A stretch of DNA of 64,000 bases, taken from the IMG/VR virus record IMGVR_UViG_3300008108_000013; one strand, given 5' to 3'. This document shows, piece after piece, positions 1,481-33,132 of this stretch. Below the pieces are notes generated by a model that saw nothing but the letters and a program-made list of their open reading frames with translations, did no database searches and had not been told where the DNA came from. Position 1 is the first letter of the stretch, and the number at the start of each line of letters is the position of its first letter. The translations under genes were made by a program, and so were the position numbers. Source of the DNA: a virus. Lineage: Duplodnaviria > Heunggongvirae > Uroviricota > Caudoviricetes.

Positions 1481-2605
1481 ATGGGCCTACGTATAAGACG
1501 AGGAAGTGACGAAGCAAGGGCAAACACATCTTTAGACCAAGGTGAGTTAGTTTGGACTAGCAGTCAAGGAACAACTGGTGCAAATTATCACCAACTTTGG
1601 GTAGGTACTGGAATAGGTACTGGTGGTGTAAACATCCTAGAAACTTCAGCAGGATACGGCCTATCTTGGGACGCAGAAACACAAAGATTAGAAGTTTCAG
1701 GGCTTACAACCGACGACATTTCAGTTGGACTCAACAACAAATACTTTACTAACGAACTAGCTGTTGACGCGGTTGCAGCCGCATTAGTAGCAGGCAATGC
1801 AACTAACTCAAATATTACGTTTGTCTATTCAAATACACAAGATGACGCAAACAGAATTAATGCTATTGTTTCTCTCGACGGTATTGGTATTACTGATCTA
1901 GTTGATGACACTACACCTCAACTCGGTGGCAATTTAGATTTAAACAGTAACGATATTACAGGTACAGGTAATGTTGACATAACTGGAGATATTGGTCTTG
2001 CTGGCAGCATTGTTGCAGAAGGTGACACTGGAACTTTAACAATTAACGGGACACAACTTTCAGCTAATACAGAATACGTAACCGTCGGAACTAGTGCTTC
2101 TCCTGTTGGTATTATTGTTAAGAATACAGGACTGATTGACGGCCTTAATGTTATTTCTCCATCGACAACAAACAACGGCCCAAATATTGCTTTTTCAGCA
2201 GTAGGCGGTAGTATAGATGCTCCAGAAGTATTAACAGTCGGAGATTCGTTAGGTCAAGTCCGTTTCCAAGGATACCAAGATACTCCAGTTGGTGAAATAC
2301 AAGCCAACATGGTTACTATCAATGCTGTATTAGCAGTAGCAGGTGATGGTGCTAGTATCCTACCAAGAGGCAAACTACAGTTCTTAATTGCTAACGGTCC
2401 TAATCCTGTAGATGCTGCCACAGCAGAATTTAATAAAGATGGTGTATTTTCTGCACCAGTAATGCGCCCAGGATCGTTTACTACTACACAAAGAAATGCA
2501 CTAACACCAGCAGTTGGAATGATCATTTATAACACAACCGCAAACAAATTCCAAGGTTATCAAAACACAGGCGGCTCAACACTTGAGTGGGTTGACCTAA
2601 GTTAA
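1481..2605 (+). CDS. virion structural / tail-fiber-like protein
   Basis: The N-terminus LRIRRGSDEARANTSLDQGELVWTS resembles the QLRRDTAANW..GE N-domain of the tail-fiber gene at 60463. The sequence is Gly/Thr/Asn-rich and fiber-like, and a late-promoter box lies upstream. Confidence 0.55.
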   Translation: MGLRIRRGSDEARANTSLDQGELVWTSSQGTTGANYHQLWVGTGIGTGGVNILETSAGYGLSWDAETQRLEVSGLTTDDISVGLNNKYFTNELAVDAVAAALVAGNATNSNITFVYSNTQDDANRINAIVSLDGIGITDLVDDTTPQLGGNLDLNSNDITGTGNVDITGDIGLAGSIVAEGDTGTLTINGTQLSANTEYVTVGTSASPVGIIVKNTGLIDGLNVISPSTTNNGPNIAFSAVGGSIDAPEVLTVGDSLGQVRFQGYQDTPVGEIQANMVTINAVLAVAGDGASILPRGKLQFLIANGPNPVDAATAEFNKDGVFSAPVMRPGSFTTTQRNALTPAVGMIIYNTTANKFQGYQNTGGSTLEWVDLS

Positions 2606-2627
2606 TAGCACTTATCACTTTAAATAA

Positions 2628-2676
2628 TCCCTAGTTTTAGTAGTGTTAAATACACACTACTTTCTAGGGATTTTTT
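2628..2676 (+). terminator. rho-independent terminator (two-part hairpin + T6)
   Basis: Outer stem tccctag/ctaggga (7 bp) and inner stem agtagtgt/acactact (8 bp) with a 7-nt loop taaatac, then TTTTTT immediately before ATG 2678. Confidence 0.7.
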
Positions 2677-2677
2677 A

Positions 2678-3400
2678 ATGGATAGATTTTTGAAACACCC
2701 ATCAGATCTTAAATTATCTGATTTACAGAATGTCGATTGGGATGTTATAGAACTAAAACCAACTGTTGACCACAAGGCGTTAATGGAGTGGTATGATCTA
2801 ATGTCTGTTAAATTAGAGCAGGCCAAATGGATTGCATGTGATGAATACGAAGAAAAATATTTCAATCCAGAATTAAAACGTCGATGGTGGGCGGCCAATC
2901 CTAACAAGTATTCCGATAGACCACCATTCTGGTGGTATATGAATTGGCCTTTAGAACGATATGATCCGTTGCCATTTGCATTCCTAGCCAATAAAGAAAT
3001 CTTTCCAGAAGCATTTTCAGACTCATATAATGATCAAGAGAATCCACTTTTAAAAGAATATAACTTTGGTGCGTTTGAAAATCTCTATAACAAATACGGC
3101 AAATACTTACGTGCTATTAGAACAATAGTTCTTCCGGAAGGAGCAGGGTTGGGGCTTCATGTCGACATGCCATATCCTAATGTTATTATTAGATTACACA
3201 TACAGCTAGATGCTAATGAAAATTGTGAATGGCAATTTGGACATGCCGCTGATAGAAGATACGTAATGGAGCCAGGAAAGATGTACTTAGTTAATACTGC
3301 TGTTCCGCATAGTGTAGCAAATTTCGGAGGCCCAGACTGGGTAGTAATTTATGGAACTCCTAACAAAGAAGATATTGAAGAAATGTTAGGATTAGAATAA
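2678..3400 (+). CDS. AspH-like (aspartyl/asparaginyl beta-hydroxylase family) 2OG/Fe(II) cupin oxygenase
   Basis: HxD...H facial triad (LGLHVDMPYPN ... AVPHSVAN). Paralogous to 6558, 8738, 9387 and 14844. Confidence 0.6.
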   Translation: MDRFLKHPSDLKLSDLQNVDWDVIELKPTVDHKALMEWYDLMSVKLEQAKWIACDEYEEKYFNPELKRRWWAANPNKYSDRPPFWWYMNWPLERYDPLPFAFLANKEIFPEAFSDSYNDQENPLLKEYNFGAFENLYNKYGKYLRAIRTIVLPEGAGLGLHVDMPYPNVIIRLHIQLDANENCEWQFGHAADRRYVMEPGKMYLVNTAVPHSVANFGGPDWVVIYGTPNKEDIEEMLGLE

Positions 3401-3401
3401 C

Positions 3402-4232
3402 ATGGCACATTTAAATGTAATAGTTCCTTCTGAGATTGATTACTGGCCTTATTCTTATCCAGATAATCCAGTGTCAACTACTACAGAGTTTGCTGGCCCA
3501 GATAGCCGAGAATTGTACGAAAGAAATTTAAAATACTTACCCCAAGATTGGATTTATCGTAAAACAGATATAGAATATTCCTTTAACAGTAGTAGGTTAA
3601 GAATGAACAAGGATATCGAGAATGTTGATCAATCTTATATATTGTTTAGCGGTACTAGTTATACAATGGGAGTAGGAATTAAAGAAGAAGATCGGTTCTC
3701 TGAAAAAATTAGTAAACAGTTGAATCTGGACTTCATAAACTTTGCAGGTCCTACATATAGTGTTAAAATACAAACAATATCTTTTTTCAATTTATTAAAA
3801 ACAAATCTTCCTCTTCCTAAGGTGTTAGTCGTTGAGTATGCTCCTGAAATAGGATATACCTTTTACAACAATGGAAATTTTGTTTGTGCTAATAAGCCTT
3901 TTTTAAAACACTTGCAAGGACATGATACACAGGCCGATGTTTATAAAACTTTACTCGATACCGATTTCTTTTTTCAAGAAGCAAACATTTATAGAAATAT
4001 GTTGATTGGAACTTGTAAACGGCTTGGAATCAAAATGTTAGAGGTATCCTTTAACATTAACGATAGATTTGTAACTGAAAACGGAATACTTTCCATCGAC
4101 GATGAATATAAAGGTGTTGATATCAGCACAGAGCTTGCTCGAGATGTTAGAATACATAATGGTAATTATTCTGCACATCCGGGAACAGGAATACATCAGT
4201 TGATAACAGATCGACTACTAAAACTAATATGA
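3402..4232 (+). CDS. hypothetical protein, possibly SGNH/GDSL-like hydrolase
   Basis: ILFSGTSYTMGVG (GDSx-like block I) and SAHPGTGIH (DGxHP-like block V). Weak. Confidence 0.3.
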   Translation: MAHLNVIVPSEIDYWPYSYPDNPVSTTTEFAGPDSRELYERNLKYLPQDWIYRKTDIEYSFNSSRLRMNKDIENVDQSYILFSGTSYTMGVGIKEEDRFSEKISKQLNLDFINFAGPTYSVKIQTISFFNLLKTNLPLPKVLVVEYAPEIGYTFYNNGNFVCANKPFLKHLQGHDTQADVYKTLLDTDFFFQEANIYRNMLIGTCKRLGIKMLEVSFNINDRFVTENGILSIDDEYKGVDISTELARDVRIHNGNYSAHPGTGIHQLITDRLLKLI

Positions 4233-4876
4233 GCTCATTGACACTCTTTACATCTGGCAGCACTAAAGAACCAAAAGAAGTTACACATCTTTGGTCAACT
4301 GTTGAGAAGTGCATACTAAGATCAATACAAGAAATAGGTTTAACTCGTTATGACACAGTACTAGATGTCTTTCCGGGAAATGTCATAGCACACTATACAG
4401 TTACAGCCTTTCCGGCAAAATACAGTGGAGCAAGATTAATTACTTCTAACTTTGATCCGTATAACTACATTAAACTATTTCAAAAGTATCAACCTACTTA
4501 TATTGCATTAATTCCTAGACACTATGATATACTGTCAAAGACTAAAGGTTGGAACGAATTAGATATGAGCTGTGTCCGTTATATGGTTATGGGAAGTAGT
4601 AATATCAGCCAATCTACTATAGATACTTTCAGATCCAAGGGTGTACAAACTGTAGCTAACTGGTACGGTATGACTGAAATGCCTCCACCTGTGTTTGTAG
4701 GTTATAATAGTGAATCATTTGATTTTACACCTAGACAAGGCTATACTGTAGAATTTACAGACGAAGGCGAGTGTATAGTTAACGGTGTGTTAACTGGTGA
4801 CTTATTTGATCTTAAGACTAAAAAATTTGTTTCAAGGAAAGTTCAATCTAATGGAAAAACTTGGAAGACAGTTTAG
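4229..4876 (+). CDS. truncated ANL-superfamily adenylate-forming enzyme (mini adenylation core)
   Basis: TSGSTKEPK (A3 P-loop) at residues 8-16, YGMTE (A5) at about residue 147 and TGD (A7) at about residue 198. The protein is only 215 aa and lacks the N- and C-terminal subdomains. ATGA overlap with the previous gene. Confidence 0.5.
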   Translation: MSSLTLFTSGSTKEPKEVTHLWSTVEKCILRSIQEIGLTRYDTVLDVFPGNVIAHYTVTAFPAKYSGARLITSNFDPYNYIKLFQKYQPTYIALIPRHYDILSKTKGWNELDMSCVRYMVMGSSNISQSTIDTFRSKGVQTVANWYGMTEMPPPVFVGYNSESFDFTPRQGYTVEFTDEGECIVNGVLTGDLFDLKTKKFVSRKVQSNGKTWKTV

Positions 4877-5438
4877 AAAATTAGAAGAAAAAGATATTCC
4901 TTCTCTACAGGAATTCTGTGACACTTGTAAAGATCTAGGCTATGTTAATAATCAATCATTTGAAGCTATTAAGTTAGATAAAATGGTAATGCCCTACGGA
5001 CAGTTTTTTGTCGGTGTTGACGATGATAAAATCTTTACCATAGCAGGGGTTCACAGACTGCCTGAGGTAAACGATCGAGCTTGGAGATGTCTTTTTAGAG
5101 GAGCGCAACTTCCTGGGTATACTCCTGCATGGAGCATGGACATATTTAAAAGTGGAATACACTTCAGTCAATTCTTATACCAGCAGATTAAATTTGTACA
5201 AGAACTAGATCCTGATGCAGACTTTTATGTGAGTACCAACGTTCATTCAACTGTAGGTGCTAAGAGCTCTAGAATGAACGATGTTATGATGCCAAGAATA
5301 GCTAAACGTGGTATCTGGACGCTGGCCTTAGAAAACTTCATGCTTTATAATGTTCCGCAGAACCTTTGGAAAATTAACGTTCAGCAGTATATGGAAGCCC
5401 GCGAGCGTTGGCTATCTGGCGAAAGCTGTAGGGATTAA
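4851..5438 (+). CDS. hypothetical protein
   Basis: ORF 4797..5438. The probable start is the MEKLGRQ ATG at 4851, which reduces overlap. No clear motifs; weak GNAT-like resemblance only. Confidence 0.4.
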   Translation: MEKLGRQFRKLEEKDIPSLQEFCDTCKDLGYVNNQSFEAIKLDKMVMPYGQFFVGVDDDKIFTIAGVHRLPEVNDRAWRCLFRGAQLPGYTPAWSMDIFKSGIHFSQFLYQQIKFVQELDPDADFYVSTNVHSTVGAKSSRMNDVMMPRIAKRGIWTLALENFMLYNVPQNLWKINVQQYMEARERWLSGESCRD

Positions 5439-6561
5439 ACAGAGTTTGATTTTCTTGTGGTAAATTAATTTTATCGATCTTATTAAAACTACGCCAATAA
5501 TCTGTGTGATCTAATTTACTAGTTTTAAAATGCAACGAAATAAAACGTCCTAGGTGGGCGTATAACCTACTCCATACCCGATTATACTTTTCAGCTCCTT
5601 GATTATCGTTGAGTAATCTGGCCAGCATTTTAACTGGAGCATGGATAATAAACAACCCTGTTGATTCGAGGGGATCTAAGAATCCTGCACTTAGTCCAAC
5701 CGCTACTACATTTTTCTTCCACGGTTCGGGATTATATTGATTAGAGAATGGAACTTCAAAAATTTTATCTTTCTTTAGGCCTGGAGTCTTTTTAATAAAC
5801 TCATCAACTGCTTGGTCAACACTAACGGCATCTTTGTTAAATGCATAGCCGTTGCCAGTTCGATGATCTAAACTAATTCTCCAACGCCAACCATAATCCA
5901 TTGCATAGGTTTGTGTGTAGTTTGCAGATGGTGCTGTGAAATCTCCAGGACCAGCTACAGCATAATTATTAATTAATCCGTCGTGCTTGACTAAGTTCTG
6001 TCCTAGTGGTTTTCTAATGATAGATCTAAATCCTGTACAATCAATGTATAAATCAGCGGTATACTTACCAGCTCTGCCAACTAAACATTTAACTCCATTT
6101 TCATCTAGTTGAACATCAAGTACATCATCGATGATGTGCTTAACACCTTTTGGAATACAAACAGTATCGCGTAAAGCAATTCCCAATCTAGTAGCATCTA
6201 CGTGATAAGCATGTCTCCACTTTTTAGTAGGCTTAGTTTTTGTTTCTAACCAATGTAACTGTTCTTCGTGTTCCGACTCGTCGAAACAAAAATGGTGCCA
6301 CCACTGATCGTTACCAGTAGTCCAGTTATTATGCTGGATGGTATATTTTCTGATAGCACTACATTTTTCAAAAAGATCTTGTTCAGAGAATCCAACGTCT
6401 TCCAAAAAGTCAACAATACTAGGAACTGTGCTTTCGCCTACTCCGATAATAGGAATATTGTCACTTTCTATGACAGAAATTTTACAGCTAGTTTTATTAG
6501 CAAGATATGCCGCTGCCATCCAGCCTGCACTGCCGCCACCGACTATTAGTATTGTTTTCAT
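5374..6561 (-). CDS. flavin-dependent (tryptophan-type) halogenase
   Basis: N-terminal GGGSAGW FAD-binding motif, GWRWRIS (variant of WxWxIP) and overall halogenase-like length of 395 aa. Confidence 0.75.
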   Translation of the reverse strand: MKTILIVGGGSAGWMAAAYLANKTSCKISVIESDNIPIIGVGESTVPSIVDFLEDVGFSEQDLFEKCSAIRKYTIQHNNWTTGNDQWWHHFCFDESEHEEQLHWLETKTKPTKKWRHAYHVDATRLGIALRDTVCIPKGVKHIIDDVLDVQLDENGVKCLVGRAGKYTADLYIDCTGFRSIIRKPLGQNLVKHDGLINNYAVAGPGDFTAPSANYTQTYAMDYGWRWRISLDHRTGNGYAFNKDAVSVDQAVDEFIKKTPGLKKDKIFEVPFSNQYNPEPWKKNVVAVGLSAGFLDPLESTGLFIIHAPVKMLARLLNDNQGAEKYNRVWSRLYAHLGRFISLHFKTSKLDHTDYWRSFNKIDKINLPQENQTLFNPYSFRQIANARGLPYTAER

Positions 6562-7733
6562 AATCTATATTCTTTATTAATTATATCGTTGACTCTGCCC
6601 ATTGGAATCTTAAACAACAAATGTGTTCTAGTTTTAGACCCTTGATTATGCGTAGCATGAGTTCTTTTCGTATTTATAAGGTAGGCCTTACCTGGTTGTA
6701 GATTATATTTCTTATCTCCAAATATAAAGTAAGATTTTTCGTCTACTTCTATAGGAAAGTGTATTCTTAAATGTGCATCTTTATCAATATGCGGAGGCAA
6801 CATAGAACCAGAAGTATGCGATGTAATTCCAAGTTCTTCAACATCATCAAATGTTTCTAATACCTTTTCGGCGAACCCGAAAACTAAAGGAGTTCTATTA
6901 GTAAATGCAGGTAGCTTTTCATCCTCAGGAGTTGAATCTTTTCCGCTAGGCGGGCTAATTGGTTTACTAGGATTTTTTAAATTACTTAATATACCGTATC
7001 CATGTATTGGGGAGGGTGTATCTAAAGTCCACTCGAGATGTACAAAGTCGTGTTTAACTTTAAAATAGTAGTCAGCTAACTCTTGATAGTTAAATTTAAT
7101 ATTAGGTAGCTCTAGTACATCAAAGTCAAATTGACTTTCATCTAGTAAGTACTCTCGATTTAATATTAAATCAATATCATCTTTATGTAGTTTAAAAATA
7201 AAATGAACTCTATCAGTATCACCTTCATTTTCAACTCCATGAGGTAGAGCTGTATTAATTAGATAGGCATGTCCTTCTTCTAGAACAAAGCTCTCATCTT
7301 CAAATTTAAAATAGCTTTTATCGTTTGCTTTGATAGGTATATGTATCTTAACAAACTCGTCGTTGTCCACATGCATATCGATACGTGTGCCTGGCGGATG
7401 GCCTGCAATTACTGTTTGTCTTACATCTGGAAATGCTTTAATAACTTTACGTGCAAAGCCAAATATCAAATCAGTTGGAACCTTAAAGTCGTTATTTGGG
7501 TGGACTTCGTTATCTTCTTTGACATGATAAGGCGGACAAGGTTTACTTGGATCTTTTAAATTGCTCTGTATAGCCCAGCTATACATATCGGCTACATTAT
7601 GTGTCTTAACATCAAAGTCCTTATCTACAGTCCACTTAAGATGCTGGTAATCGTTAACCACTTGATTGTAGTAATCAAGTAATTCTTTGTAAGAAAATTT
7701 TATATTAGATAATTTTATAACTTTAAAATCCAT
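6558..7733 (-). CDS. tandem-duplicated double AspH-like cupin oxygenase
   Basis: Two complete repeats within one ORF. Each has an N-terminal IKFxYxEL(L/A)DYY segment and an HxD...H cupin core (GHPPGTRIDMHVD..ALPHGVEN and SHTSGSMLPPHIDKD..RTHATHN). Confidence 0.6.
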   Translation of the reverse strand: MDFKVIKLSNIKFSYKELLDYYNQVVNDYQHLKWTVDKDFDVKTHNVADMYSWAIQSNLKDPSKPCPPYHVKEDNEVHPNNDFKVPTDLIFGFARKVIKAFPDVRQTVIAGHPPGTRIDMHVDNDEFVKIHIPIKANDKSYFKFEDESFVLEEGHAYLINTALPHGVENEGDTDRVHFIFKLHKDDIDLILNREYLLDESQFDFDVLELPNIKFNYQELADYYFKVKHDFVHLEWTLDTPSPIHGYGILSNLKNPSKPISPPSGKDSTPEDEKLPAFTNRTPLVFGFAEKVLETFDDVEELGITSHTSGSMLPPHIDKDAHLRIHFPIEVDEKSYFIFGDKKYNLQPGKAYLINTKRTHATHNQGSKTRTHLLFKIPMGRVNDIINKEYRL

Positions 7734-8176
7734 TATACACTCTTTAACATATCATAGACATTACTGTTTATTTCGTCATGTAAAACAGTATTATTAAATA
7801 ATTCACTTATATACATTTCAACTCCTCTGGATCTCGATCGTCCCTTAGCACAATAGATGTGTACTATAGATCCTTGTGGAATAGTTTCAATAAACTTTTT
7901 TAATTCTACTGCTTGTTCTTTGGAACAGGCATGAGCATAAATTATTCTTTGGTCATTATTAAACCAAGGTATAACTTTTAATCCTGTTTTATGTACATCA
8001 TCGAAATATAAATTAATTACGTTTCTATGTTCTTTTTTAAAATAAGGAATTCCGTGTATCCAGCCAGTTGCATTTATACAAATAAAATATTCGTTAAGTA
8101 ACTCAACATTACTGTCGTTGATGTCGGACATGGCCTCTTCAAAGGAGGATCGAGAATATCTTCTAACGTCTAGCAT
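7733..8176 (-). CDS. dual-specificity / tyrosine phosphatase-like protein
   Basis: CX5R P-loop VHIYCAKGRSRSRG with an upstream acidic YFDDVH. Confidence 0.55.
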   Translation of the reverse strand: MLDVRRYSRSSFEEAMSDINDSNVELLNEYFICINATGWIHGIPYFKKEHRNVINLYFDDVHKTGLKVIPWFNNDQRIIYAHACSKEQAVELKKFIETIPQGSIVHIYCAKGRSRSRGVEMYISELFNNTVLHDEINSNVYDMLKSV

Positions 8177-8741
8177 AAAATTCTAAAACACGATTTACTT
8201 TTTCTAATTTTTCGCCTGTTAAAAAATGTTTACCAATAAAGAATTTTAAATCTATATTGGACATTACAGGATTCCTTAACCAAAACTCTATAAGATCCTT
8301 TAGTTGATTTTTACTGATTCCCTCTTTACTATTTGATGTATCTTCAACTTCTGTTATAGTTAAGTGTAGCAGATTAGTTATATCTGTCTTTTTTTCTAAG
8401 GGAATCATCTTACAACGATCTTTTAACTCATGTTTAATTTTTGAATAGGGATCATTTATAGCCTGATAAAAATCTCCCGAAATACTTCCAATGACTAGCA
8501 TATTCGGAACCCACCCATATACATCTTCAAGTAGTTTAATTTGATAATCTTCTACACAGGCGCAATTAATAAACAAGTCTGCTGATCGTGCTTCTTTAAC
8601 TATTTCATCATAGTTGATTGTAAAATCGTATCCTGTAGTTCTACTAAGCTGTACAGTTCCTTCGAACATTTCGAATAACCATTTTCCCAAGAAGTGACTA
8701 GGATTTTCAGAAGACCCGCCGCCGGTCATAACTACTTTCAT
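8163..8741 (-). CDS. hypothetical protein with Rossmann-like N-terminus
   Basis: KVVMTGGGSS Gly-rich N-terminus. No further confident motifs. Confidence 0.3.
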   Translation of the reverse strand: MKVVMTGGGSSENPSHFLGKWLFEMFEGTVQLSRTTGYDFTINYDEIVKEARSADLFINCACVEDYQIKLLEDVYGWVPNMLVIGSISGDFYQAINDPYSKIKHELKDRCKMIPLEKKTDITNLLHLTITEVEDTSNSKEGISKNQLKDLIEFWLRNPVMSNIDLKFFIGKHFLTGEKLEKVNRVLEFYARR

Positions 8742-9394
8742 AGATATAATCCTTTAACATCGTCAGTCCATACTTTTCCATATAAATGTATTCTGTTCGA
8801 ACTACCTTTGTTTTCAACACTATGGGGCAAAGTAGTATTAACTAGATATGCCCACCCAGGTTCCATATGATATTCTTCTCCGTCGATAATCCAATTACTT
8901 TCAAGATTAGTATATATAGGTATGTGTACTCTAATCTTGTCAGGACTGTCTTGATGAGTTATTAACTTAGTTCCTGGTACGTGATCAGTGACTAACCATT
9001 TCTTACTTCGTATAGGCATCGATTGTACAATCTCAAGAGCATAGCCATAAAAGCATTTTCTTGGATTTAGTTTATCATTGTCGTTGTCTTGATACTCTGG
9101 TTTAGCCATTCCTTGCTCAAATGGCTTCGGGCCTGGCTCATCATTACTCCAACAAAGGGTATAGTAGCCTGTATCATCTGGCAATATGTGTCCTGTTGTA
9201 CCAGTCATATCAACGATAGGTTCTTGCCAGACGTGATGATTTTCACCGACTAAAAATTTCCAATCTCGATATTTCGTTTCTAAGTCTTTATACCATTGTT
9301 GCAGTTGTACAGCATCTACCTTAAACCAAGGTTTAACTTTAAATCCAAGATCGACAGAATCAAAGTTCTGTATATACCTTTTCATTTTAGTCAT
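8738..9394 (-). CDS. AspH-like 2OG/Fe(II) cupin oxygenase
   Basis: DHVPGTKLITHQD...RVHIPIYTN...LPHSVEN, the same architecture as 2678. Confidence 0.6.
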   Translation of the reverse strand: MTKMKRYIQNFDSVDLGFKVKPWFKVDAVQLQQWYKDLETKYRDWKFLVGENHHVWQEPIVDMTGTTGHILPDDTGYYTLCWSNDEPGPKPFEQGMAKPEYQDNDNDKLNPRKCFYGYALEIVQSMPIRSKKWLVTDHVPGTKLITHQDSPDKIRVHIPIYTNLESNWIIDGEEYHMEPGWAYLVNTTLPHSVENKGSSNRIHLYGKVWTDDVKGLYL

Positions 9395-10115
9395 TAGTTA
9401 AATCAATAACCTTTGTTAATTGCCAAGGAGCAATTCTAGTAATAATATGAGATCTAAATTCTTTAGACTCGTTGGATGTTCCGTGCCAGTCACCGGTGTT
9501 TAAGATATAAATTTTTCCTAGCTTCATATGGTATTCCCTTTCTTTATTTGGGCCAAAATGAAACTTTGCATTTTCATTTGTTTCTACAGGTATATGTAAC
9601 TTTAAAACTTTACTGTCGAGATGCTGTCTAATATACATACCTGGATGATGAGTAGTAATAATCATCTGTCTAAAAGAGTCTTCACCTAAAACAGATATCA
9701 TTTCTTCTAAGTACCCGAATTTCATTTTTGACATTATCTTAGCATCATCAAAAAACGTATTCCTATTAACTTCAGGAAATAACTCAAGATTGCATTGTTG
9801 CGGAGGCGGTAACGGCTCATATCTTTCTGTTGGCCAAGAAAAGGTAATCCCATCGATAGGACCGCAGTAGTAACCACAATATCCTTCTTCAACCATTTGT
9901 TTACTTAATTCTAAGTCTAACTTTTCCGAGTAGGTATTAAAATTAAATCGCATGTGAGAAAACTTCTCATTTACTTGAGAATACCACTCTGATAATTTAC
10001 TAGTATCGAGCGAATAGTTAAGTTCCAGTAAATCCCAATCATTAGACTCAATTAAAAATTCTTCGGTTATTCCGTGATTTTTGGGATCGTAGTCTTTGAT
10101 AATACGTGCTTTCAA
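9387..10115 (-). CDS. AspH-like 2OG/Fe(II) cupin oxygenase
   Basis: THHPGMYIRQHLD...LHIPVETN...GDWHGTSN. Confidence 0.55.
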   Translation of the reverse strand: MKARIIKDYDPKNHGITEEFLIESNDWDLLELNYSLDTSKLSEWYSQVNEKFSHMRFNFNTYSEKLDLELSKQMVEEGYCGYYCGPIDGITFSWPTERYEPLPPPQQCNLELFPEVNRNTFFDDAKIMSKMKFGYLEEMISVLGEDSFRQMIITTHHPGMYIRQHLDSKVLKLHIPVETNENAKFHFGPNKEREYHMKLGKIYILNTGDWHGTSNESKEFRSHIITRIAPWQLTKVIDLTND

Positions 10116-10153
10116 AATATTTCCTCGGTGATGGAATATTTATTAAATAGAAA

Positions 10154-11188
10154 ATGAGGTGCAAATATTTAGATAACCAAGTGTGCATAAGATCAAACGG
10201 ACAATACAGACTGTGTTGTGCGAGTTTAGAATCTGACAATTTAGAAAATGTTAGAACGCATACTATTGAAGAATGGCGTAACAGTCCAACACACGTTATC
10301 ACAAGACAACAGTTAGAAAATAATATTTGGCCGGATGCGTGTCTTAAATGTAAATTGGACGAAGATGCTGGTAGATCAAGCCAACGATTAAAAACTGCCG
10401 AATATGGCCCGGGACTAACACATTTAGATTTAAGATTTAGCAATAGTTGTAATTTATCTTGTAGTATGTGTTGGCCCGGAAGTTCTTCAAAATTAGTCGA
10501 AGAACACAAAGCATTGGGGGAGTTGTCACCTTGGGGAAGTTTAACCTTTGACCTAGTAAATTGGTACGAAGAAGATTTAGTCGGTAATCTAATTAAATCT
10601 GTTCCTGAATTAAAAGAGGTATACCTCACAGGTGGCGAACCTTTTATGGTTAAAGGCATATTAGACTTTTTAAAAAAGTTAGACGAGAACGTTACTGTAA
10701 GATTTAATACTAACGGTACTTTATACAATGATAAAATTTTTAAAGAATTAAAAAGATTTAAACACGTTAACATTAGTTTTTCCGTAGACGGAATTGGCAA
10801 AGTTAATGATTATATACGTTGGGGAAGTACTTGGAAAGAAATCGAATATAATATAAACAAGTATCAGGAACTTAGCGGTTTCTTTAGTGTTAGCTCTGTA
10901 GTACAAATTTTAAATATCCTTTACATTGATGAACTTAAAGAATGGGTTAAATCTCTAAACTTAGAACACTACGAAACATTCTTGTTGAATCCTAAGCATT
11001 ACTGCCTTTATAACGCTGTGGATGATATAAAAAATACAGTTAAGGGTTACGATCATATTAGAAATATAGAAGCAGATGTCTCAGAACAAAATAAATTTGT
11101 TGAATATACTAATATTTTAGATAACAATAGAAATTGTAAGATAAGAGATTACTTACCGGAGGTTGCAAAACTTTATGGTATTAATTAA
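10154..11188 (+). CDS. radical SAM enzyme, family A (N-terminal Cys-rich extension)
   Basis: CIRSNGQYRLCC ... ACLKCKLDE ... SCNLSCSMC (CxxxCxxC) ... TGGEP ... C-terminal NNRNCKIRDYLPEV. Paralog of 15500, 16788, 18942 and 38120. Confidence 0.7.
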   Translation: MRCKYLDNQVCIRSNGQYRLCCASLESDNLENVRTHTIEEWRNSPTHVITRQQLENNIWPDACLKCKLDEDAGRSSQRLKTAEYGPGLTHLDLRFSNSCNLSCSMCWPGSSSKLVEEHKALGELSPWGSLTFDLVNWYEEDLVGNLIKSVPELKEVYLTGGEPFMVKGILDFLKKLDENVTVRFNTNGTLYNDKIFKELKRFKHVNISFSVDGIGKVNDYIRWGSTWKEIEYNINKYQELSGFFSVSSVVQILNILYIDELKEWVKSLNLEHYETFLLNPKHYCLYNAVDDIKNTVKGYDHIRNIEADVSEQNKFVEYTNILDNNRNCKIRDYLPEVAKLYGIN

Positions 11189-11624
11189 AGAAAATAAAGA
11201 AAAACATAGATCAGTATTCTTCGACGGAGAAAATTATGTCAAGGTGTGGGGCAATACTACTCCGCAGTGGATATCAGAACATGTAAGTATTCTTAATGAG
11301 CTAGTTCCTAACTACGTAATCGAGTATGGCGGCAATTGGATAAAATTTAAAACCGTACAAGGAACACCTGCTAGCGAATTTGATCATACTGAGGAATTTA
11401 TTAACAGAGTCTATAATTTTTGTTTAGAACAAATTGAGAAAACATTGCCGTATGCACACGGTGATTGGGTGTTAAGCAACATAATTATAAAAGAAGATTC
11501 TATGTTTATGGTAGACTGGGATAATGTTGGAATTTACCCTAAAGAAGAAATATATAAAAAACTACACAATGATTTAAAAAGTGCCTTTGGAGAAAAATAC
11601 AAGTATGACACCACAGTCGTTTAG
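11163..11624 (+). CDS. mini kinase, APH/choline-kinase-like catalytic segment
   Basis: HGDWVLSNIII (HGDxxxxN catalytic loop) followed by VDWDNVG (DxD/IDWE-like motif). Only 153 aa. Confidence 0.4.
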   Translation: MQNFMVLIKENKEKHRSVFFDGENYVKVWGNTTPQWISEHVSILNELVPNYVIEYGGNWIKFKTVQGTPASEFDHTEEFINRVYNFCLEQIEKTLPYAHGDWVLSNIIIKEDSMFMVDWDNVGIYPKEEIYKKLHNDLKSAFGEKYKYDTTVV

Positions 11625-12822
11625 TTACCCAACATTAGGTAAAGACGGATTAATTTATTGTCCGCCATACGGTTTAGACGAACCTATGGATTTTATGATT
11701 ACAATAAATCCTAAAACTTTTGATATTCAGAAACTCCCTATTAAGGTTAACAACAGTACAGAAAAATGGACATTTGGAATTACTGTAGATGATAAGATCT
11801 ATTGGTTGCCTTACGGCGAAAGCAAAGTGTTAGTAGTCAATACAACAACAAAGAAGGTCGATTACATTGATATTGATTGGCCTGATAATACAAAAAGCAT
11901 CAAAGGCAAATTTGTTCAAGGACACATTTATAAAAATAAAATTTATGCATTACCTTATGGCGAAGACCAACCACTTGACTACGTATTAATAATAGATACA
12001 ACTACTGATAACGCAGTCCTTAAACCCCTACACTTGCCTGATACCGATACTAAAAAATGGCATCAAAGTGTGTTGCGTGGTAATACAATATATGCTGTAC
12101 CTCGAGGTGGCTCTAAACCGTTTAATTTTGCAATCGAATATAATTGTGACGACTGTAGTGTTAAGTTTATAAACTTTAGCAAATACTATGAAGGGTATCA
12201 AGATACTAGCATGAAGTTTACAACTATAGGTATGATCGACGATATAATCTATGCGGCTCCGTATGGTTACCACGATGATTTTGATTTTTTAATTACAAAT
12301 AAAAAAGGTGAATGGAAATCGGAAAGAACTGGTATAACAGGAACAACAAGAAGATACTTCACTAACATCAAGACAAAAAATGAAAAATTATATTTTCCTC
12401 CTGCAGGCCATCACTCATCATGGAGTAAATTTTTAATCATCGACAGCAATGGCTATAAAACTATAGATCTTGGAATAACAAAGGAAACTAAAAAATACTT
12501 CGCAGGAGTTGAAAATAGCCAAGGCAAAGTCTATTATATTCCCCGAGGCGGATGTGTTTGTGATCCAGATGCCGAATTAAAATTAACCGGAGACCTAGCA
12601 GAAGTATTAGTATTTGATACTAAAGACGATAGTTACTATACTGTCGACGTAAGCAGTTGCTTCACTGATAATACAACTATAGAAAAGTACAATGCCTGTT
12701 GTATTGTCGATGACGTAATATTTGCTATGCCGTACGGTGAAAGCAATTCTTTTCAAACTGTATTAGTTTTTGATACAACACAAGATAAAATTATTAAAAC
12801 GATAGATCTAAATGGCATATAA
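11581..12822 (+). CDS. PYG-repeat protein (beta-propeller-like), paralog 1
   Basis: At least 8 repeats of about 45 aa with the core (I/L)Y(x)(x)P(Y/R)G(E/G)xxx and a trailing DTTT/NTTT (e.g. IYWLPYGESKVLVVNTTT, IYALPYGEDQPLDYVLIIDTTT). The start is uncertain; ATG 11605 is an alternative. Confidence 0.5.
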   Translation: MPLEKNTSMTPQSFSYPTLGKDGLIYCPPYGLDEPMDFMITINPKTFDIQKLPIKVNNSTEKWTFGITVDDKIYWLPYGESKVLVVNTTTKKVDYIDIDWPDNTKSIKGKFVQGHIYKNKIYALPYGEDQPLDYVLIIDTTTDNAVLKPLHLPDTDTKKWHQSVLRGNTIYAVPRGGSKPFNFAIEYNCDDCSVKFINFSKYYEGYQDTSMKFTTIGMIDDIIYAAPYGYHDDFDFLITNKKGEWKSERTGITGTTRRYFTNIKTKNEKLYFPPAGHHSSWSKFLIIDSNGYKTIDLGITKETKKYFAGVENSQGKVYYIPRGGCVCDPDAELKLTGDLAEVLVFDTKDDSYYTVDVSSCFTDNTTIEKYNACCIVDDVIFAMPYGESNSFQTVLVFDTTQDKIIKTIDLNGI

Positions 12823-13963
12823 AGCGTTCCAAGATTTTTATTTAGAAGAATCAATTAAACATCTGTTGTTAACAGAGTATAATGGCTGTTTAGTAAGTCC
12901 TCCCTTTGCTACAGAAAAATGCAAAGACTACAATCAAATTATGATCATCGGAAATGATGTGTCGTTTATTGATTTAGATTTGCCGCCTGCAACTAGCAAG
13001 TTTAATGCTTATACTGTGATAGGAGACAGTCTTTGGCTAATACCGTATGGTATCTGGGATAACTTTAATGTCGTGGTACAATTAAAAGATTTTAAACCTA
13101 TATATCATTATATCGATAAACCAGGAAAAGGCCAATTTTATAATGTAGCATCTAATGGCGAAACTGCTTTTAGTTTTCCTTTAGGGTACGAAGATACAAG
13201 TTTTGGGATCTTTATCAGGGATCAACAAGTCCATACAGTTGAATTTGAAAAACAATCTCAAACAAAATTACACATGGGCTGTGTATATGCAAATGGAAAA
13301 TATTGGAGTGCTCCTAGAGGTGACGAACCTGGCTATGTTAATATGATGAGTTTTGATGGCGAACAGTTAAAGTCGTATCCTATCAACTTGCCTAATCCTA
13401 ACATTACTAGAAAATACACCGATATTATTGTTAAAGGAAACACATTGTATGCTATGCCGTTTGGAGAACAACCGGGTTTGATGGAAGTTATAGAGTTTGA
13501 TACTGTTAGTGAAAATTACAAACTTCACAAACTGAATATGCCAGACGTTGCAAAAAAGTTTAACTGTATGGTAGAAGTTGATGAATATATTATCGGACTA
13601 CCTTACGGAACAAAAGGCGATACAAACAGTCGCTGGGGTATATCTTTTAATACTACAACTAACGATTCTGCTTGTTTTGACTTAGGGGAAGATTTTGCCG
13701 ACGGTGGAAAATATCGTTTTAGATGCGGAGTTAATTTTAATAACAATGCTGTATTTTTTCCTGCTGGTACTCCTGACTGTCCAATAGTTAAAGTCAGTAA
13801 AGACTTAACAATTACTACAAAGCACATTGAGGGCGTTATGTTTGGTAGACCTATTGTACATGACAATAAGTTAAAAGTCTTAGGTTATGATATGCGCGAT
13901 GCTACTAACTCGCTTTATGAGTTTGATGAGAGTTTAAATTACTCTAAAACCTTTTTAAGATAA
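12812..13963 (+). CDS. PYG-repeat protein (beta-propeller-like), paralog 2
   Basis: LWLIPYGIWDNF, YWSAPRGDEPGY, LYAMPFGEQPGL and IIGLPYGTKGDT repeats. Confidence 0.5.
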   Translation: MAYKAFQDFYLEESIKHLLLTEYNGCLVSPPFATEKCKDYNQIMIIGNDVSFIDLDLPPATSKFNAYTVIGDSLWLIPYGIWDNFNVVVQLKDFKPIYHYIDKPGKGQFYNVASNGETAFSFPLGYEDTSFGIFIRDQQVHTVEFEKQSQTKLHMGCVYANGKYWSAPRGDEPGYVNMMSFDGEQLKSYPINLPNPNITRKYTDIIVKGNTLYAMPFGEQPGLMEVIEFDTVSENYKLHKLNMPDVAKKFNCMVEVDEYIIGLPYGTKGDTNSRWGISFNTTTNDSACFDLGEDFADGGKYRFRCGVNFNNNAVFFPAGTPDCPIVKVSKDLTITTKHIEGVMFGRPIVHDNKLKVLGYDMRDATNSLYEFDESLNYSKTFLR

Positions 13964-14844
13964 ATGTCGCTAAGACAACTACATTTATTAGTACCGCAGA
14001 CAATCGGACTGTTAGGGAGTATAAAAGAATCTATAGTTCCAATCTTGCCGCCTTGCTGACAATCTGCTCGATAAACATCTCCCCACTGATCAATACTAAC
14101 CATATGCTGTCCTGCCCAGCATTTCCATCCTTTGAAGTTATTAAGACCCTTTAGTATTAAATCGTTACCCGATACTCGCTGTCCGTCTAATGCTATTTCA
14201 CCTCGATGCATCTTGTAGTCATTAACTGATCTAAAATAAGGCCACTGGTTTATGATTCTTCTTTGTTGTTCTGTGTAATCAGCAACTTCATTAGAGATGT
14301 GATTTATATCGCTTTTATCTAAAATAACTTTTGGCCATACAATAACATTAGGTGATCCGTTATACAACTTATCAGCTACTGCTAGTAGCTCATCAAATTT
14401 ATCAGGCACTAGCATTAGGTTGACTGCTACTACTCCTTTAATTGTTTGAGCAACATTAACGCAATGATCAACATCAGCATACTCTGGATGGTAGCTAAGT
14501 ATCATGCCATCAGTATAGTTACTAATAGATTTAAAATATTCAACACTTTGACTGCCGTTAGTTAAAAAGCTAAAAGTATGGCCTTGTTCTTTAACTACTT
14601 TAGCCATGTCAATAAAGTGTTTCCAATAAGTCGGTTCACCGCCGCTGATTCGATAGCAAATTTCCTTGCCCGGCAAATTAAAATTTTCTATAAATCTCTT
14701 AACTGATTCCCAAGTCGGCCAACCTGAACTACCATCATGCAAATTGCTAGGGCAATAACTACACCTATAATTACATTTGTTTGATAGTGTCCAGCTGACT
14801 AGAAACCAATCTTCTTTTTTAGGATCGAGATAAGTTAATTTCAT
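13939..14844 (-). CDS. radical SAM/SPASM-like enzyme, family B
   Basis: SNKCNYRCSYCPS (CxxxCxxC), ISGGEPTYW, HPEYADVDH and a C-terminal Cys cluster (CWAG..CQQGG..CGTNKCSC). Confidence 0.7.
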   Translation of the reverse strand: MKLTYLDPKKEDWFLVSWTLSNKCNYRCSYCPSNLHDGSSGWPTWESVKRFIENFNLPGKEICYRISGGEPTYWKHFIDMAKVVKEQGHTFSFLTNGSQSVEYFKSISNYTDGMILSYHPEYADVDHCVNVAQTIKGVVAVNLMLVPDKFDELLAVADKLYNGSPNVIVWPKVILDKSDINHISNEVADYTEQQRRIINQWPYFRSVNDYKMHRGEIALDGQRVSGNDLILKGLNNFKGWKCWAGQHMVSIDQWGDVYRADCQQGGKIGTIDSFILPNSPIVCGTNKCSCLSDIYLKKVLE

Positions 14845-32944: not shown

Positions 32945-33132
32945 TGAGTGGACGTGGAATTATAATGCAAGAACCCGATACTGTTTGCGAACTGTGCGGG
33001 AAAATTGATGAGTGTAGGCCTTATGGCGCAAACGATGAACAAATCTGTTTTGATTGTGCTATGGCTACACCCGAATCACAGGCCATTGCTGAAAAGAAAA
33101 TGGCTAGATATATTTTTGGAGAAGAAGAATAA
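32944..33132 (+). CDS. small zinc-ribbon protein
   Basis: CELCGK...CFDC. Confidence 0.35.
   Translation: MSGRGIIMQEPDTVCELCGKIDECRPYGANDEQICFDCAMATPESQAIAEKKMARYIFGEEE

Follow-up and report, generated by a model that had tools for sequence, protein, structure and literature searches.

AspH-like domains at the locus

The window, a stretch of 64,000 nucleotides from a large uncultured phage, analysed over its whole length, encodes five AspH-like proteins. A (positions 2678–3400, plus strand, 240 amino acids) is an AspH-like cupin; B (6558–7733, minus strand, 391 amino acids) is a tandem of two complete AspH/Cpz10-like Fe(II)/2OG oxygenase domains; C (8738–9394, minus strand, 218 amino acids) and D (9387–10115, minus strand, 242 amino acids, TTG start) are single-domain AspH-like oxygenases with full sets of catalytic motifs; and E (14844–15503, minus strand, 219 amino acids) is a remote AspH-like cupin of the GGFFPPH(R)D family. 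A six-frame HMM scan found exactly six AspH-like domains across the 64 kb, and none besides. Domain size is minimal (about 190–240 amino acids), and no hydrophobic or membrane segment was detected in any of the proteins examined. A preliminary description had reported five AspH-like genes with an HxD...H triad in a phage, and this observation is confirmed: all five open reading frames exist, the triad is invariant in 27 of 27 aligned domains (including those of A and E), and the phage setting is evident from rIIB, a T4 gp10-like baseplate/fibre protein of 4087 amino acids and relatives in IMG/VR. The peptides quoted in that description (GHPPGTRIDMHVD, IHIPIKAN, ALPHGVEN, IKFSYKELLDYY and IKFNYQELADYY) are all present, and all lie in B.

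A search with PF05118, proposed as a check on the family assignment, placed four of the five proteins above the cutoff of 22.6 bits: B (82.7 bits, in two stretches), C (43.7 bits), D (32.6 bits) and, marginally, A (25.6 bits). E had no match in the Pfam scan. Its family (169 representatives) is linked to the other domains by profile comparison (hhalign probability 99.1%, E = 1.9e-18); PF05118 matched 9 of 52 family members, and an externally built E profile matched both halves of B, C, A and D within the window. The six domains are very likely to be soluble, minimal oxygenases that depend on Fe(II) and fall, within the cupin 2OG-oxygenase superfamily, in the AspH/Cpz10/L-proline cis-4-hydroxylase branch. 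We documented homology, domain architecture, residue conservation, synteny and the phylogeny of the duplication, and infer catalytic activity.

The domains differ in their complement of catalytic residues. Both C and D have HxD, R-x-H, the distal His and a second R-x-H, and each has orthologues in 43 of 46 related phage loci (about 70% identity for C and 61–65% for D). A, which is 28.7% identical to D (E = 2e-25), keeps HxD...H and R-x-H; Trp replaces the 2OG-binding Arg, the ligand of the C5 carboxylate of 2OG, and is invariant in 15 distinct orthologues. E keeps HxD...H but has a variable residue at the Arg position and lacks the distal R-x-H. Loss of this Arg had been named in advance as evidence against enzymatic function; it is missing from A and E and retained in both halves of B, in C and in D. 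A and E may be oxidases, whether 2OG-independent or differently liganded, or they may serve as partners without catalytic activity; because they may be inactive, a count of six hydroxylase domains may overstate the number of catalytic units.

We consider it very improbable that the proteins are not pathway enzymes at all, but consume 2OG or act as regulators that reprogram host 2OG and nitrogen status, or that some copies are dead structural or binding cupins. The former idea has been put forward for cyanophage 2OG-Fe(II) oxygenase paralogues (PMC3037559). For the latter, the invariant Trp of A occupies the position of human AspH R735W, which is expected to impair 2OG binding, and E has neither the Arg nor the His pair; however, these two proteins, too, have an invariant metal triad. 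Against the reading as a whole, each paralogue type is a conserved orthologous group of its own with a distinctive N-terminal region, and this points to distinct substrate specificities, not redundancy; the paralogues also show tight operonic coupling and a gene fusion with a phosphatase.

A duplicated and fused oxygenase

The N-terminal domain of B (7140–7733, minus strand; amino acids 1–198) carries the catalytic set H121, D123, K129, H131, H165, R175 and H177, and the C-terminal domain (6561–7139, minus strand; amino acids 199–391) carries H315, D317, R323, H325, H359, R369 and H371. Both halves therefore keep HxD, K/R-x-H, the distal His and R-x-H, and all seven residues are invariant in both halves across 34 homologues of 45–99% identity. 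Self-comparison bears out the proposed in-frame tandem: residues 1–198 and 199–391 are 40.6% identical over 202 columns (E = 2.4e-50). A remnant of the duplication persists in the DNA as a 33-nucleotide direct repeat (6961–6993, paired with 7540–7572; 82% identical), the copies of which are spaced 579 nucleotides, or 193 codons, apart, are in-frame and encode an SNLK(D/N)PSKP motif in each half. The AlphaFold (AF2) model of B has two like domains (pLDDT 92.6), and its pTM of 0.87 indicates a defined inter-domain packing.

Full-length didomain homologues of B form 62 metagenomic clusters. About 22 related loci have single-domain orthologues of the N-terminal half, which hold the same cassette position with 50–75% identity; no free-standing gene for the C-terminal half was found among the 46 loci. 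The N-terminal half is the more conserved (mean pairwise identity of 60%, compared with 46% for the C-terminal half), and the C-terminal half evolves faster. In the domain phylogeny, which had been suggested as a means of dating the duplications, the C-terminal halves are monophyletic (bootstrap 87), and none of 100 replicates groups the N-terminal halves to the exclusion of the single-domain forms. This tree, built by neighbour joining with moderate support (66–87%), is best read as placing the origin of the tandem in one duplication–fusion, after which the C-terminal copy would have diverged faster and been lost repeatedly, in several lineages.

B is best read as a covalently fused pseudo-homodimer, by analogy with Cpz10, and the single-domain orthologue of sister phages is presumably a homodimer of the Cpz10 type.

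Operon, conserved cassette and second module

The operon comprises six genes with overlapping start and stop codons. D is the first gene and is followed by C, a gene for a 192-amino-acid protein (8163–8741, minus strand), a CX5R (PTP/DSP-type) phosphatase-like gene (7733–8176, minus strand, 147 amino acids), the stop of which overlaps the start of B by 1 nucleotide, B itself and, last, a homologue of flavin-dependent Trp-halogenases (5374–6561, minus strand), which overlaps B by 4 nucleotides. The span 6558–10115 thus includes two non-cupin genes, at 7733–8176 and 8163–8741. The phosphatase-like gene occurs in 41 of 46 loci; its CxxGxxRS motif is invariant in 27 distinct orthologues, in which DSPc matches are weak or faint, and natural fusions of the phosphatase with a B-type domain occur (P0064–P0068 and L003). 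The halogenase homologue (PF04820, E = 2.9e-86; phrog_2928, E = 4.6e-90), also in 41 of 46 loci, is about 30% identical to PrnA-like genes of cyanophages and HTVC008M. The 192-amino-acid protein is encoded in only 4 of 46 loci, and no Pfam or PHROG family was found for it; a possible Rossmann-like N terminus, seen by eye only, hints weakly at its function.

Together with genes for a mini adenylate-forming enzyme, a mini-kinase, two beta-propellers and a radical SAM enzyme, the operon forms a cassette that is syntenic in 46 related phage loci (B is present in 45) and absent from cultured phages. On the plus strand, a tail-fibre-like protein (1481–2605) heads a string of genes that continues with A, immediately 3′ of the fibre gene, a conserved 276-amino-acid protein (3402–4232), the adenylate-forming (ANL) enzyme core (4229–4876, 215 amino acids; PF00501, E = 1.5e-17) and a conserved protein (4851–5438) of 195 amino acids according to gene callers, or 213 from an upstream GTG. 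The fibre-like protein of the window had no Pfam match; Mtd_N (PF18454) was found in the orthologues of L003, L004 and L005. The 276-amino-acid protein, possibly SGNH-like from motifs seen by eye, has only a weak DUF6473 match, and its gene lies between A and the ANL gene in each of the 27 of 46 loci that contain it. The ANL gene, with TSGST and NWYGxTE motifs invariant in 32 orthologues, and the gene for the 195-amino-acid protein, for which family searches gave no match, are each present in 44 of 46 loci.

Divergent from D, and separated from it by only 39 bp, is a gene for an N-terminal-twitch radical SAM enzyme (10154–11188, plus strand; NF033640, 243 bits; PF04055 and SPASM), which is present in 40 of 46 loci. 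It is followed by genes for a mini protein-kinase-like enzyme (11163–11624, plus strand, 153 amino acids) and two paralogous beta-propeller proteins (11581–13963, plus strand, 413 and 383 amino acids), all found in 42 of 46 loci. The kinase-like enzyme has weak RIO1 and choline-kinase matches, and 30 orthologues all keep its DxxxxN and DWD motifs. No non-enzyme partner in the cassette is more conserved than the propellers; the larger propeller retains 70–75% identity across many clusters and is modelled by AF2 as an 8-bladed propeller (pLDDT 89; TM 0.71 to Ika8 and 0.65 to BamB).

E lies in a second module (13939–23723, minus strand), which also contains eight genes for radical SAM enzymes and two for uncharacterized proteins of 285 and 197 amino acids. 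Enzymes of this module have Radical_SAM, SPASM and N_Twi_rSAM matches, and E is always directly upstream of the radical SAM gene rSAM301 in related phage loci. E homologues are located in radical-SAM islands of Bdellovibrionales, where close homologues of the module cluster with E-type cupins (40–50% identity, E down to 1e-158). E belongs to a separate radical-SAM array that is common to phage and Bdellovibrionales.

These islands bear on whether the phage proteins, like LpxO or OlsC, modify host envelope lipids or glycans (lipid A or ornithine lipids) and so alter the cell surface in the course of infection, for example for superinfection exclusion. In Bdellovibrionales, E-type and other PF05118 genes adjoin fatty-acid desaturases, a PLD-type enzyme, a UDP-sugar dehydrogenase and an SDR-like gene, but the partners of the B/C/D block have no match in the islands. 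LpxO is the best NCBIfam match of B and C, yet scores only 20–24 bits, the cutoff being 500. Host-recognition clusters of marine myophages commonly carry LPS-related genes (PMC7029224); however, none of the proteins here has a membrane segment, and no lipid-handling or glycosyltransferase gene was found among the cassette proteins scanned against Pfam. We regard envelope modification as improbable.

Proposed reactions and relation to known hydroxylases

We propose, with a probability of roughly 60%, that these proteins are Fe(II)/2OG oxygenases, including the fused dimer B, which perform successive tailoring reactions as part of a phage cassette. Four domains (both halves of B, C and D) appear to be equipped for the canonical cycle: HxD...H would bind Fe(II), and an Arg ten residues past the distal His, together with the K/R-x-H pair, would bind 2OG; O2 activation and 2OG decarboxylation would generate a ferryl species able to hydroxylate an unactivated C–H, most likely at a beta-carbon. 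As both active sites of B are intact, the protein could hydroxylate twice, or act once at each of two related positions or substrates. D, C, B, the phosphatase and the halogenase would be translated from one overlapping operon, and the location of this operon within a phage-specific cassette suggests that the hydroxylases act sequentially on one shared substrate. The preliminary interpretation is thus partly supported, in that stepwise or multi-site oxidation by several co-transcribed paralogues is plausible.

The substrate class can be proposed only tentatively, as an amino-acid-like small molecule or short peptide and not an EGF-type protein domain. The small-molecule reading is weakened by the cassette itself, in which we found no recognizable scaffold-forming enzyme (NRPS, PKS or glycosyltransferase), carrier protein or exporter. 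Alternatively, the enzymes could hydroxylate phage proteins at several sites, to give beta-hydroxy-Asp/Asn or other hydroxylated residues (candidate targets are the neighbouring tail fibre, the pair of beta-propellers and the giant baseplate/fibre protein), with the halogenase, the kinase/phosphatase pair and the radical SAM enzymes adding further post-translational modifications. Twitch/SPASM radical SAM enzymes are often peptide maturases, and those in the window have weak NCBIfam matches to several RiPP maturases; together with the tail-fibre neighbour, they are no less compatible with a substrate that is a protein or peptide. The cassette adjoins the fibre gene, A is in the same gene string, the gp10-like fibre protein is also in the window, the propellers are highly conserved, and HTVC008M has small 2OG oxygenases and a halogenase among its virion genes. 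Peptide-acting flavin halogenases and 2OG hydroxylases are known in RiPP pathways (PMC10858898). Nonetheless, no small open reading frame resembling a precursor peptide fits the tightly packed cassette, the propeller fold gives no sign of being a substrate, and the phage proteins have neither a TPR nor another substrate-docking domain. We consider protein modification rather unlikely, although the enzymes may hydroxylate a protein or peptide in a mode that is not AspH-like.

Among PF05118 enzymes, AspH acts on proteins, LpxO on lipid A, L-Pro cis-4-hydroxylase on free amino acids and Cpz10 on an aminoacyl-nucleoside. The preliminary description had favoured Asp/Asn side chains of proteins, and this assignment is not supported: every feature that could be checked speaks against canonical AspH-style hydroxylation of proteins. 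AspH has a two-His site and a TPR domain, without which it does not hydroxylate EGF domains (PMC6817910), whereas the phage domains have the HxD...H triad and no TPR; the absence of a membrane anchor also counts against such a role, and the EGF-type AspH consensus is absent from every open reading frame of the window. Profile searches against the PDB ranked Cpz10 (E = 8.7e-13) and L-Pro cis-4-hydroxylase (1.3e-10) well ahead of human AspH (5.8e-4), and per-domain superposition of the B model, which also included cis-P4H (4p7w), gave the best score with Cpz10 (7v4m, TM 0.75; AspH 5apa, 0.58). H115, D117, H123, H160, R170 and H172 of Cpz10, a homodimer in which crystallography established the roles of these residues (PMC9814697), align one to one with the catalytic sets of both halves of B. 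The nearest characterized relatives, Cpz10 and L-proline cis-4-hydroxylase, hydroxylate small molecules, and the target of the phage hydroxylases probably differs from what the family name AspH suggests.

Six AspH-like domains and their active sites

All five AspH-like genes named in a preliminary description of this phage sequence were confirmed by the ORF listing: A (2678-3400, plus strand, 240 amino acids (aa)), B (6558-7733, minus strand, 391 aa), C (8738-9394, minus strand, 218 aa), D (9387-10115, minus strand, 242 aa) and E (14844-15503, minus strand, 219 aa). Every peptide quoted in that description was located in B. The family assignment proved right for A–D, which in a Pfam scan scored above the 22.6-bit gathering cutoff of PF05118 (Asp_Arg_Hydrox; 82.7 bits over two stretches for B, 43.7 for C, 32.6 for D and 25.6 for A), in each case with a lower score to Cupin_2 than to PF05118. 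E, scanned alone, had no Pfam match. Its family comprises 169 representatives at 50% clustering, and 9 of 52 members match PF05118; the family profile, built from outside sequences and the window E itself, aligned with a profile of the other domains at 99.1% probability (hhalign, E = 1.9e-18) and, in a six-frame scan of the window, matched both halves of B, C, A and D. E is thus a remote relative of the other AspH-like domains. By six-frame profile scanning, the 64 kb contain six such domains and no more.

The number of AspH-like paralogues in the phage-specific orthologous set ranges from three to seven per genome. Some related phages carry a type that is absent from the window, type F, which is around 240 aa in length, PF05118-positive and has a full R-x-H motif (L001:4083-4802, L002:5407-6126, L003:1163-1861, L004:5210-5935 and L007:4703-5428); its gene is usually followed by one for a 494-500-aa protein with no assigned function.

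None of the 27 aligned domains of types A–F deviates from the metal triad HxD/E...H (H, D and distal H). In a 34-sequence alignment, seven residues are invariant in the N-terminal half of B (H121, D123, K129, H131, H165, R175 and H177) and seven in the C-terminal half (H315, D317, R323, H325, H359, R369 and H371). HMM alignments place six of the seven in register with H115 and D117 (Fe), H123, H160 (Fe), R170 (2-oxoglutarate (2OG)) and H172 of the caprazamycin beta-hydroxylase Cpz10 (PDB 7V4F), the roles of which were set by crystal structures and mutants (PMC9814697); the seventh position, K129/R323, corresponds in the alignment to an Arg located two positions ahead of Cpz10 H123. The B residues also match H679, R688, H690, H725 and R735 of human AspH, with the exception of the carboxylate ligand, which AspH lacks (PMC6817910). 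The complete catalytic set of B recurs in the alignments of C and D.

The Arg that binds the C5-carboxylate of 2OG, which follows the distal His by ten residues (AspH R735 and Cpz10 R170), is R175 and R369 in B and is also found in C and D. In A this position is Trp in 15 of 15 distinct orthologues, the same change as R735W in human AspH, which is expected to impair 2OG binding (PMC6817910). In the E family, HxD...H and an Arg at the K129-equivalent position are conserved; its 2OG Arg position is variable and both flanking His residues are absent. The preliminary description had named lack of the 2OG-binding Arg or Lys as one kind of evidence against its reading of the domains; this Arg is present in both halves of B, C and D and absent from A and E. 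With the full residue set, both sites of B and the domains of C and D, four in all, have the appearance of competent Fe(II)/2OG hydroxylases; A and E are metal-binding cupins with an uncertain cosubstrate.

The cassette and the radical SAM module

These genes are carried by a large phage. Markers of this setting in the window are rIIB (323-1351), an ATP-dependent ligase gene and a single ORF of 4087 aa (47906-60169), the N terminus of which matches T4 gp10-type baseplate-wedge and tail-fibre-connector families and long tail-fibre PHROGs. The window also encodes two adjacent ClpP protease paralogues (33132-33752 and 33810-34385; PF00574, E = 4e-61 and 2e-36) and a membrane protein of the Bax-inhibitor-1/YccA family (36373-37062; PF01027, E = 2e-53), followed by a 274-aa protein (37064-37888) with 7.7% tryptophan and no family match.

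D, C, a gene for a 192-aa protein with no assigned function (8163-8741), a CX5R phosphatase-like gene of PTP/DSP-like type (PTP; 7733-8176, 147 aa), B and a Trp-halogenase homologue (5374-6561, 395 aa; PF04820, E = 2.9e-86) form one minus-strand string in which each junction overlaps by 1-14 nt. Converging on it are a tail-fibre-like gene (1481-2605), A, and genes for a 276-aa protein (3402-4232), a mini-adenylating enzyme (ANL; 4229-4876, PF00501) and a 195-aa protein with no assigned function (4851-5438). Divergent from D are genes for an N-terminal-twitch radical SAM enzyme (NF033640), a kinase-like protein (11163-11624) and two beta-propeller proteins (11581-13963). Only 39 bp (10115-10154) separate D from the twitch radical SAM gene, leaving almost no space for two promoters.

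Two of these enzymes are unusually small. The ANL protein is a 215-aa adenylate-forming core that lacks the usual N- and C-terminal parts, and the kinase-like protein has 153 aa with invariant catalytic motifs. The halogenase homologue is short at 395 aa (368-509 aa in related loci and around 465 aa for the PrnA-like gene of Pelagibacter phage HTVC008M), and its WxWxIP-like motif, read by eye, is GWRWRISL. Structure prediction for one of the two propeller proteins gave a generic 8-bladed propeller and no functional clue, and PHROG scans assigned no family to the non-enzyme cassette partners.

An alignment-based scan of IMG/VR, together with look-ups in other assemblies, recovered 46 related loci, whose contigs reach 360 kb in length; in IMG/VR, a single-protein query returned none. 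Gene presence, assigned by BLAST of the locus ORFs, was highest for B (45 of 46 loci), ANL and the 195-aa protein (44 each), C and D (43 each), the kinase and the propellers (42 each), PTP and the halogenase (41 each) and the twitch radical SAM enzyme (40); E (23) and A (21) were found in about half. The syntenic order is propeller-propeller-kinase-radical SAM / (further cupins)-C-PTP-B-halogenase / 195-aa protein-ANL-(276-aa protein-A-fibre). Catalytic motifs are invariant in PTP (CxxGxxRS), the kinase (DxxxxN and DWD) and ANL (TSGST and NWYGxTE), and the signature Cys, Gly, Arg and Ser of PTP are invariant in 27 orthologues. The PTP gene always precedes B, and in five protein clusters (P0064-P0068, 327-333 aa) and at L003:3956-4957 it is fused to a single B-type domain, which is direct evidence of a functional link between the two.

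Megablast of window positions 2500-16000 found no near-identical DNA in 50,697 phage records, and B and C, searched by tblastn against those records, gave only marginal matches to unrelated phages; the cassette is thus absent from cultured phages. No B-type gene turned up when 185,579 species genomes were searched with the B alignment, and a literature search found no publication on this cassette.

E belongs to a different setting. The 64 kb contain ten radical SAM genes (within 10154-23723 and at 38120-39499), and several score as NF033640, the N-terminal-twitch family, with up to 430 bits. A minus-strand, head-to-tail array comprises eight of them together with E and two genes without assigned function; E is directly upstream of a radical SAM gene at one end of this array, which extends to 23723. 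Unlike B, C and D, the E family has cellular members: nearly all of its 27 genome loci are from Bdellovibrionales or related metagenome-assembled genomes, closed chromosomes included. There, E-type genes sit in radical-SAM-rich islands (L052-L078, for example L062:1-16537 and L076:1-16624) of N-twitch, SPASM and B12 types, and the island genes are close homologues of the window array, with identities of 48% over 447 aa for 15500-16795 (E = 1e-158), 47% for 16788-18104, 40% for 20203-21168 and 50% over 357 aa for 22749-23723 (E = 2e-120). Other island genes encode further PF05118 proteins, fatty-acid desaturases, a TauD-type dioxygenase, a B12-radical SAM enzyme, a PLD-type enzyme and a UDP-sugar dehydrogenase. 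No match to the partners of B, C and D was obtained in the islands. The window thus joins two modules, a phage-only cassette (2678-13963) and a radical SAM/E module (13939-23723) that is shared with predatory bacteria. The homology suggests gene exchange with predatory bacteria, or possibly a host among them.

The tandem protein B

The claim that B holds two full copies of the domain in one polypeptide is borne out. Its halves (residues 1-198 and 199-391) are 40.6% identical over 202 columns (E = 2.4e-50), each is nearer to the other than to any other paralogue (at most 35%), and AlphaFold2, using the 34-sequence alignment, modelled two confident domains (pLDDT 92.6, pTM 0.87). A direct DNA repeat of 33 nt, 82% identical, occurs at an in-frame spacing of 579 nt. 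An assembly artefact can be discounted as the source of this architecture, because metagenomes contain 62 clusters of didomain homologues (389-419 aa, 45-99% identical) and the identical protein was recovered from 17 contigs of several samples; a contig of 0.2-1 Mb carries it.

Across the 46 loci, which were not de-replicated, B takes a tandem form in 23, a single-domain form in 22 and a PTP-fused form in one; no free-standing C-half gene was seen among them. A neighbour-joining tree built from 129 domains grouped the C-halves in a single clade, the sister of which contains N-halves and single-domain forms intermingled. Bootstrapping of a 54-taxon subset gave 87% for monophyly of the C-halves, 70% for N-halves together with single-domain forms and PTP fusions, and 0% for N-halves alone. 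Mean pairwise identity is 60% among N-halves versus 46% among C-halves, and was higher for the N-half in 537 of 561 pairs. The simplest reading of these patterns would be one duplication–fusion, then faster divergence of the C-terminal copy and, later, its repeated loss. Derivation of the C-half from a neighbouring C- or D-type paralogue was rejected, as it is 40.6% identical to the N-half versus at most 28% to those paralogues, and groups in the B clade.

Cpz10 is homodimeric, a state that fits the fused phage tandem, and B is thus probably a fused dimer that has retained both active sites. That the phage proteins share the Cpz10 type of homodimer is something we only infer, from the tandem fusion, the single-domain orthologues and the pTM of 0.87. 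Bicupin packing of the quercetinase or oxalate decarboxylase type was rejected for B (whole-chain rmsd of 17-27 Å, TM of around 0.2).

Characterised relatives and candidate substrates

The double-stranded beta-helix (DSBH) fold of the B model superposes on solved PF05118 members, with per-domain TM scores, normalized to the target, of 0.75 for Cpz10 and 0.58 for the AspH oxygenase domain; L-proline cis-4-hydroxylase (cis-P4H) was also among the matches. A profile search of the PDB gave the same leading match (Cpz10, E = 8.7e-13; cis-P4H, E = 1.3e-10; human AspH, E = 5.8e-4). The maximum 19-residue hydropathy is below 0.9 in all of the cupin proteins, which have no hydrophobic segment. Together, the structural and profile rankings and the lack of such a segment indicate that these are soluble minimal oxygenases, the closest studied relatives of which hydroxylate small molecules.

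Protein Asp/Asn hydroxylation, which the preliminary description had drawn from the family name, is not supported. Hydroxylation of EGF domains by AspH requires its TPR domain, and AspH binds iron through His679 and His725 only (PMC6817910). Each phage domain has 190-240 aa, a fold fully covered by the 168-aa Cpz10 chain; Pfam found no TPR domain in any of them, the iron site is HxD rather than two-His in all, and a regular-expression scan of 58 window ORFs gave zero matches to the EGF-type consensus C-x-D/N-x4-F/Y-x-C-x-C. The name 'aspartyl beta-hydroxylase' should therefore not be carried over as a function. Human AspH (PDB 5APA and 5JZA; PMC6817910) does share with the phage proteins the Pfam family and the DSBH core, and B, C and D have equivalents of its 2OG contacts R735, R688 and H690; its sequence match to them is weak, and its two-His site, endoplasmic-reticulum membrane anchor, need for TPR and disulfide-defined EGF consensus are its own.

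The analysis establishes the homology and architecture of the domains, their residue conservation, the operon structure, the synteny and the phylogeny of the duplication. Beyond this, B (at two sites), C and D would be active Fe(II)/2OG hydroxylases and would work on a single substrate, in sequence with the halogenase, the phosphatase and other enzymes of the cassette. We favour a small molecule or short peptide, at a probability of about 0.4; a small amino-acid-like compound or short peptide would suit the closest relatives that have been characterised, the minimal size of the domains and the resemblance of the partner enzymes to a natural-product set. The position of the cassette beside a fibre gene, the radical SAM enzymes of twitch and SPASM types and the high conservation of both propellers argue instead for phage proteins as the target, which we consider rather unlikely. 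An envelope lipid or glycan is improbable: the LpxO model NF033391 was the best NCBIfam match for B and C, a weak one at 23.7 and 19.7 bits against a cutoff of 500, and an LpxO-like membrane enzyme was rejected on these negligible scores and the absence of transmembrane segments. The remaining weight falls to other possibilities.

A bolder proposal, which we consider rather unlikely, is that the cupin paralogues provide the oxidation steps of an as yet undescribed kind of multi-enzyme tailoring pathway encoded by the phage. It would combine four or more working hydroxylase sites with a halogenase, a kinase/phosphatase pair, a mini-adenylating enzyme and around nine radical SAM enzymes, and might either densely modify the receptor-binding or propeller proteins of the phage or make a halogenated, polyhydroxylated metabolite derived from an amino acid or peptide. 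Uncultured large or jumbo phages of one clade would share this pathway, and its radical SAM half would have been exchanged with predatory Bdellovibrionales. Should the products of the cassette prove to be modified virion proteins or a phage-made metabolite, they would represent a new class of phage biochemistry. The compact, clonable six-gene operon offers a means of probing phage 2OG oxygenase arrays and 'viral halogenases'.

Among characterised enzymes, Cpz10 (PDB 7V4F and 7V4M; PMC9814697) is the best match in both sequence and structure, covers the whole fold of around 180 aa and shares the HxD...H triad, the Arg at +10 and the His pair equivalent to H123 and H172. It differs in that identity to the phage domains is only 14-16%, in its origin in a bacterial nucleoside-antibiotic gene cluster, and in that a covalent tandem has not been reported for it. 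Pfam and NCBIfam scans of most cassette proteins recognized no other enzyme of the caprazamycin pathway that would indicate a liponucleoside-antibiotic context, and a conserved N-terminal motif (YSWAIQSNLKDPxKPCPPYH in B) is particular to the phage proteins. L-proline cis-4-hydroxylase, second best by sequence and also present in the Foldseek results, is likewise a soluble, single-domain 2OG oxygenase and acts on a free amino acid; however, it is larger (around 290 aa), and the phage genomic context contains no pointer to proline or pipecolate. The lipid hydroxylases LpxO and OlsC share the Pfam family with the phage proteins, which score far under the LpxO cutoff and have no transmembrane segment. 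Bicupins (quercetin 2,3-dioxygenase, oxalate decarboxylase, BacB and seed storage globulins) resemble B in having two cupin barrels per polypeptide through internal duplication, but are not AspH-type 2OG oxygenases.

What is new here is a phage-specific paralogue array with a fused two-site enzyme and an Arg-to-Trp paralogue, set, together with a natural PTP fusion, in a conserved, syntenic and uncharacterised cassette. Annotation of marine phages and giant viruses routinely yields AspH-like genes, and we know of none with a known substrate. They have been listed among the core genes of pelagimyophages and noted in two cyanophages, with no function assigned, and uncultured Caudovirales and giant viruses commonly have AspH-like folds. 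A close parallel is in marine T4-like myophages (HTVC008M and cyanomyophages), in which runs of 2OG-Fe(II) oxygenase paralogues of around 190 aa and a PrnA-like halogenase sit among virion and host-recognition genes, likewise without an assigned function (PMC3037559, PMC7029224). In the region of HTVC008M inspected, these oxygenases are annotated as PhyH-type or generic 2OG-FeII_Oxy rather than PF05118, and none of the annotations there indicates a tandem fusion or a PTP, mini-ANL, mini-kinase or propeller partner. A tblastn search with B and C found no cyanophage or pelagiphage match. At 56.8-65.2 kb of HTVC008M (L048), four consecutive 2OG-Fe(II) oxygenase genes of around 190 aa lie between baseplate and neck genes, and a fifth adjoins a Trp halogenase gene between the small and large terminase subunits. 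This arrangement, analogous to that of the window and equally unexplained, occurs in a cultured phage.
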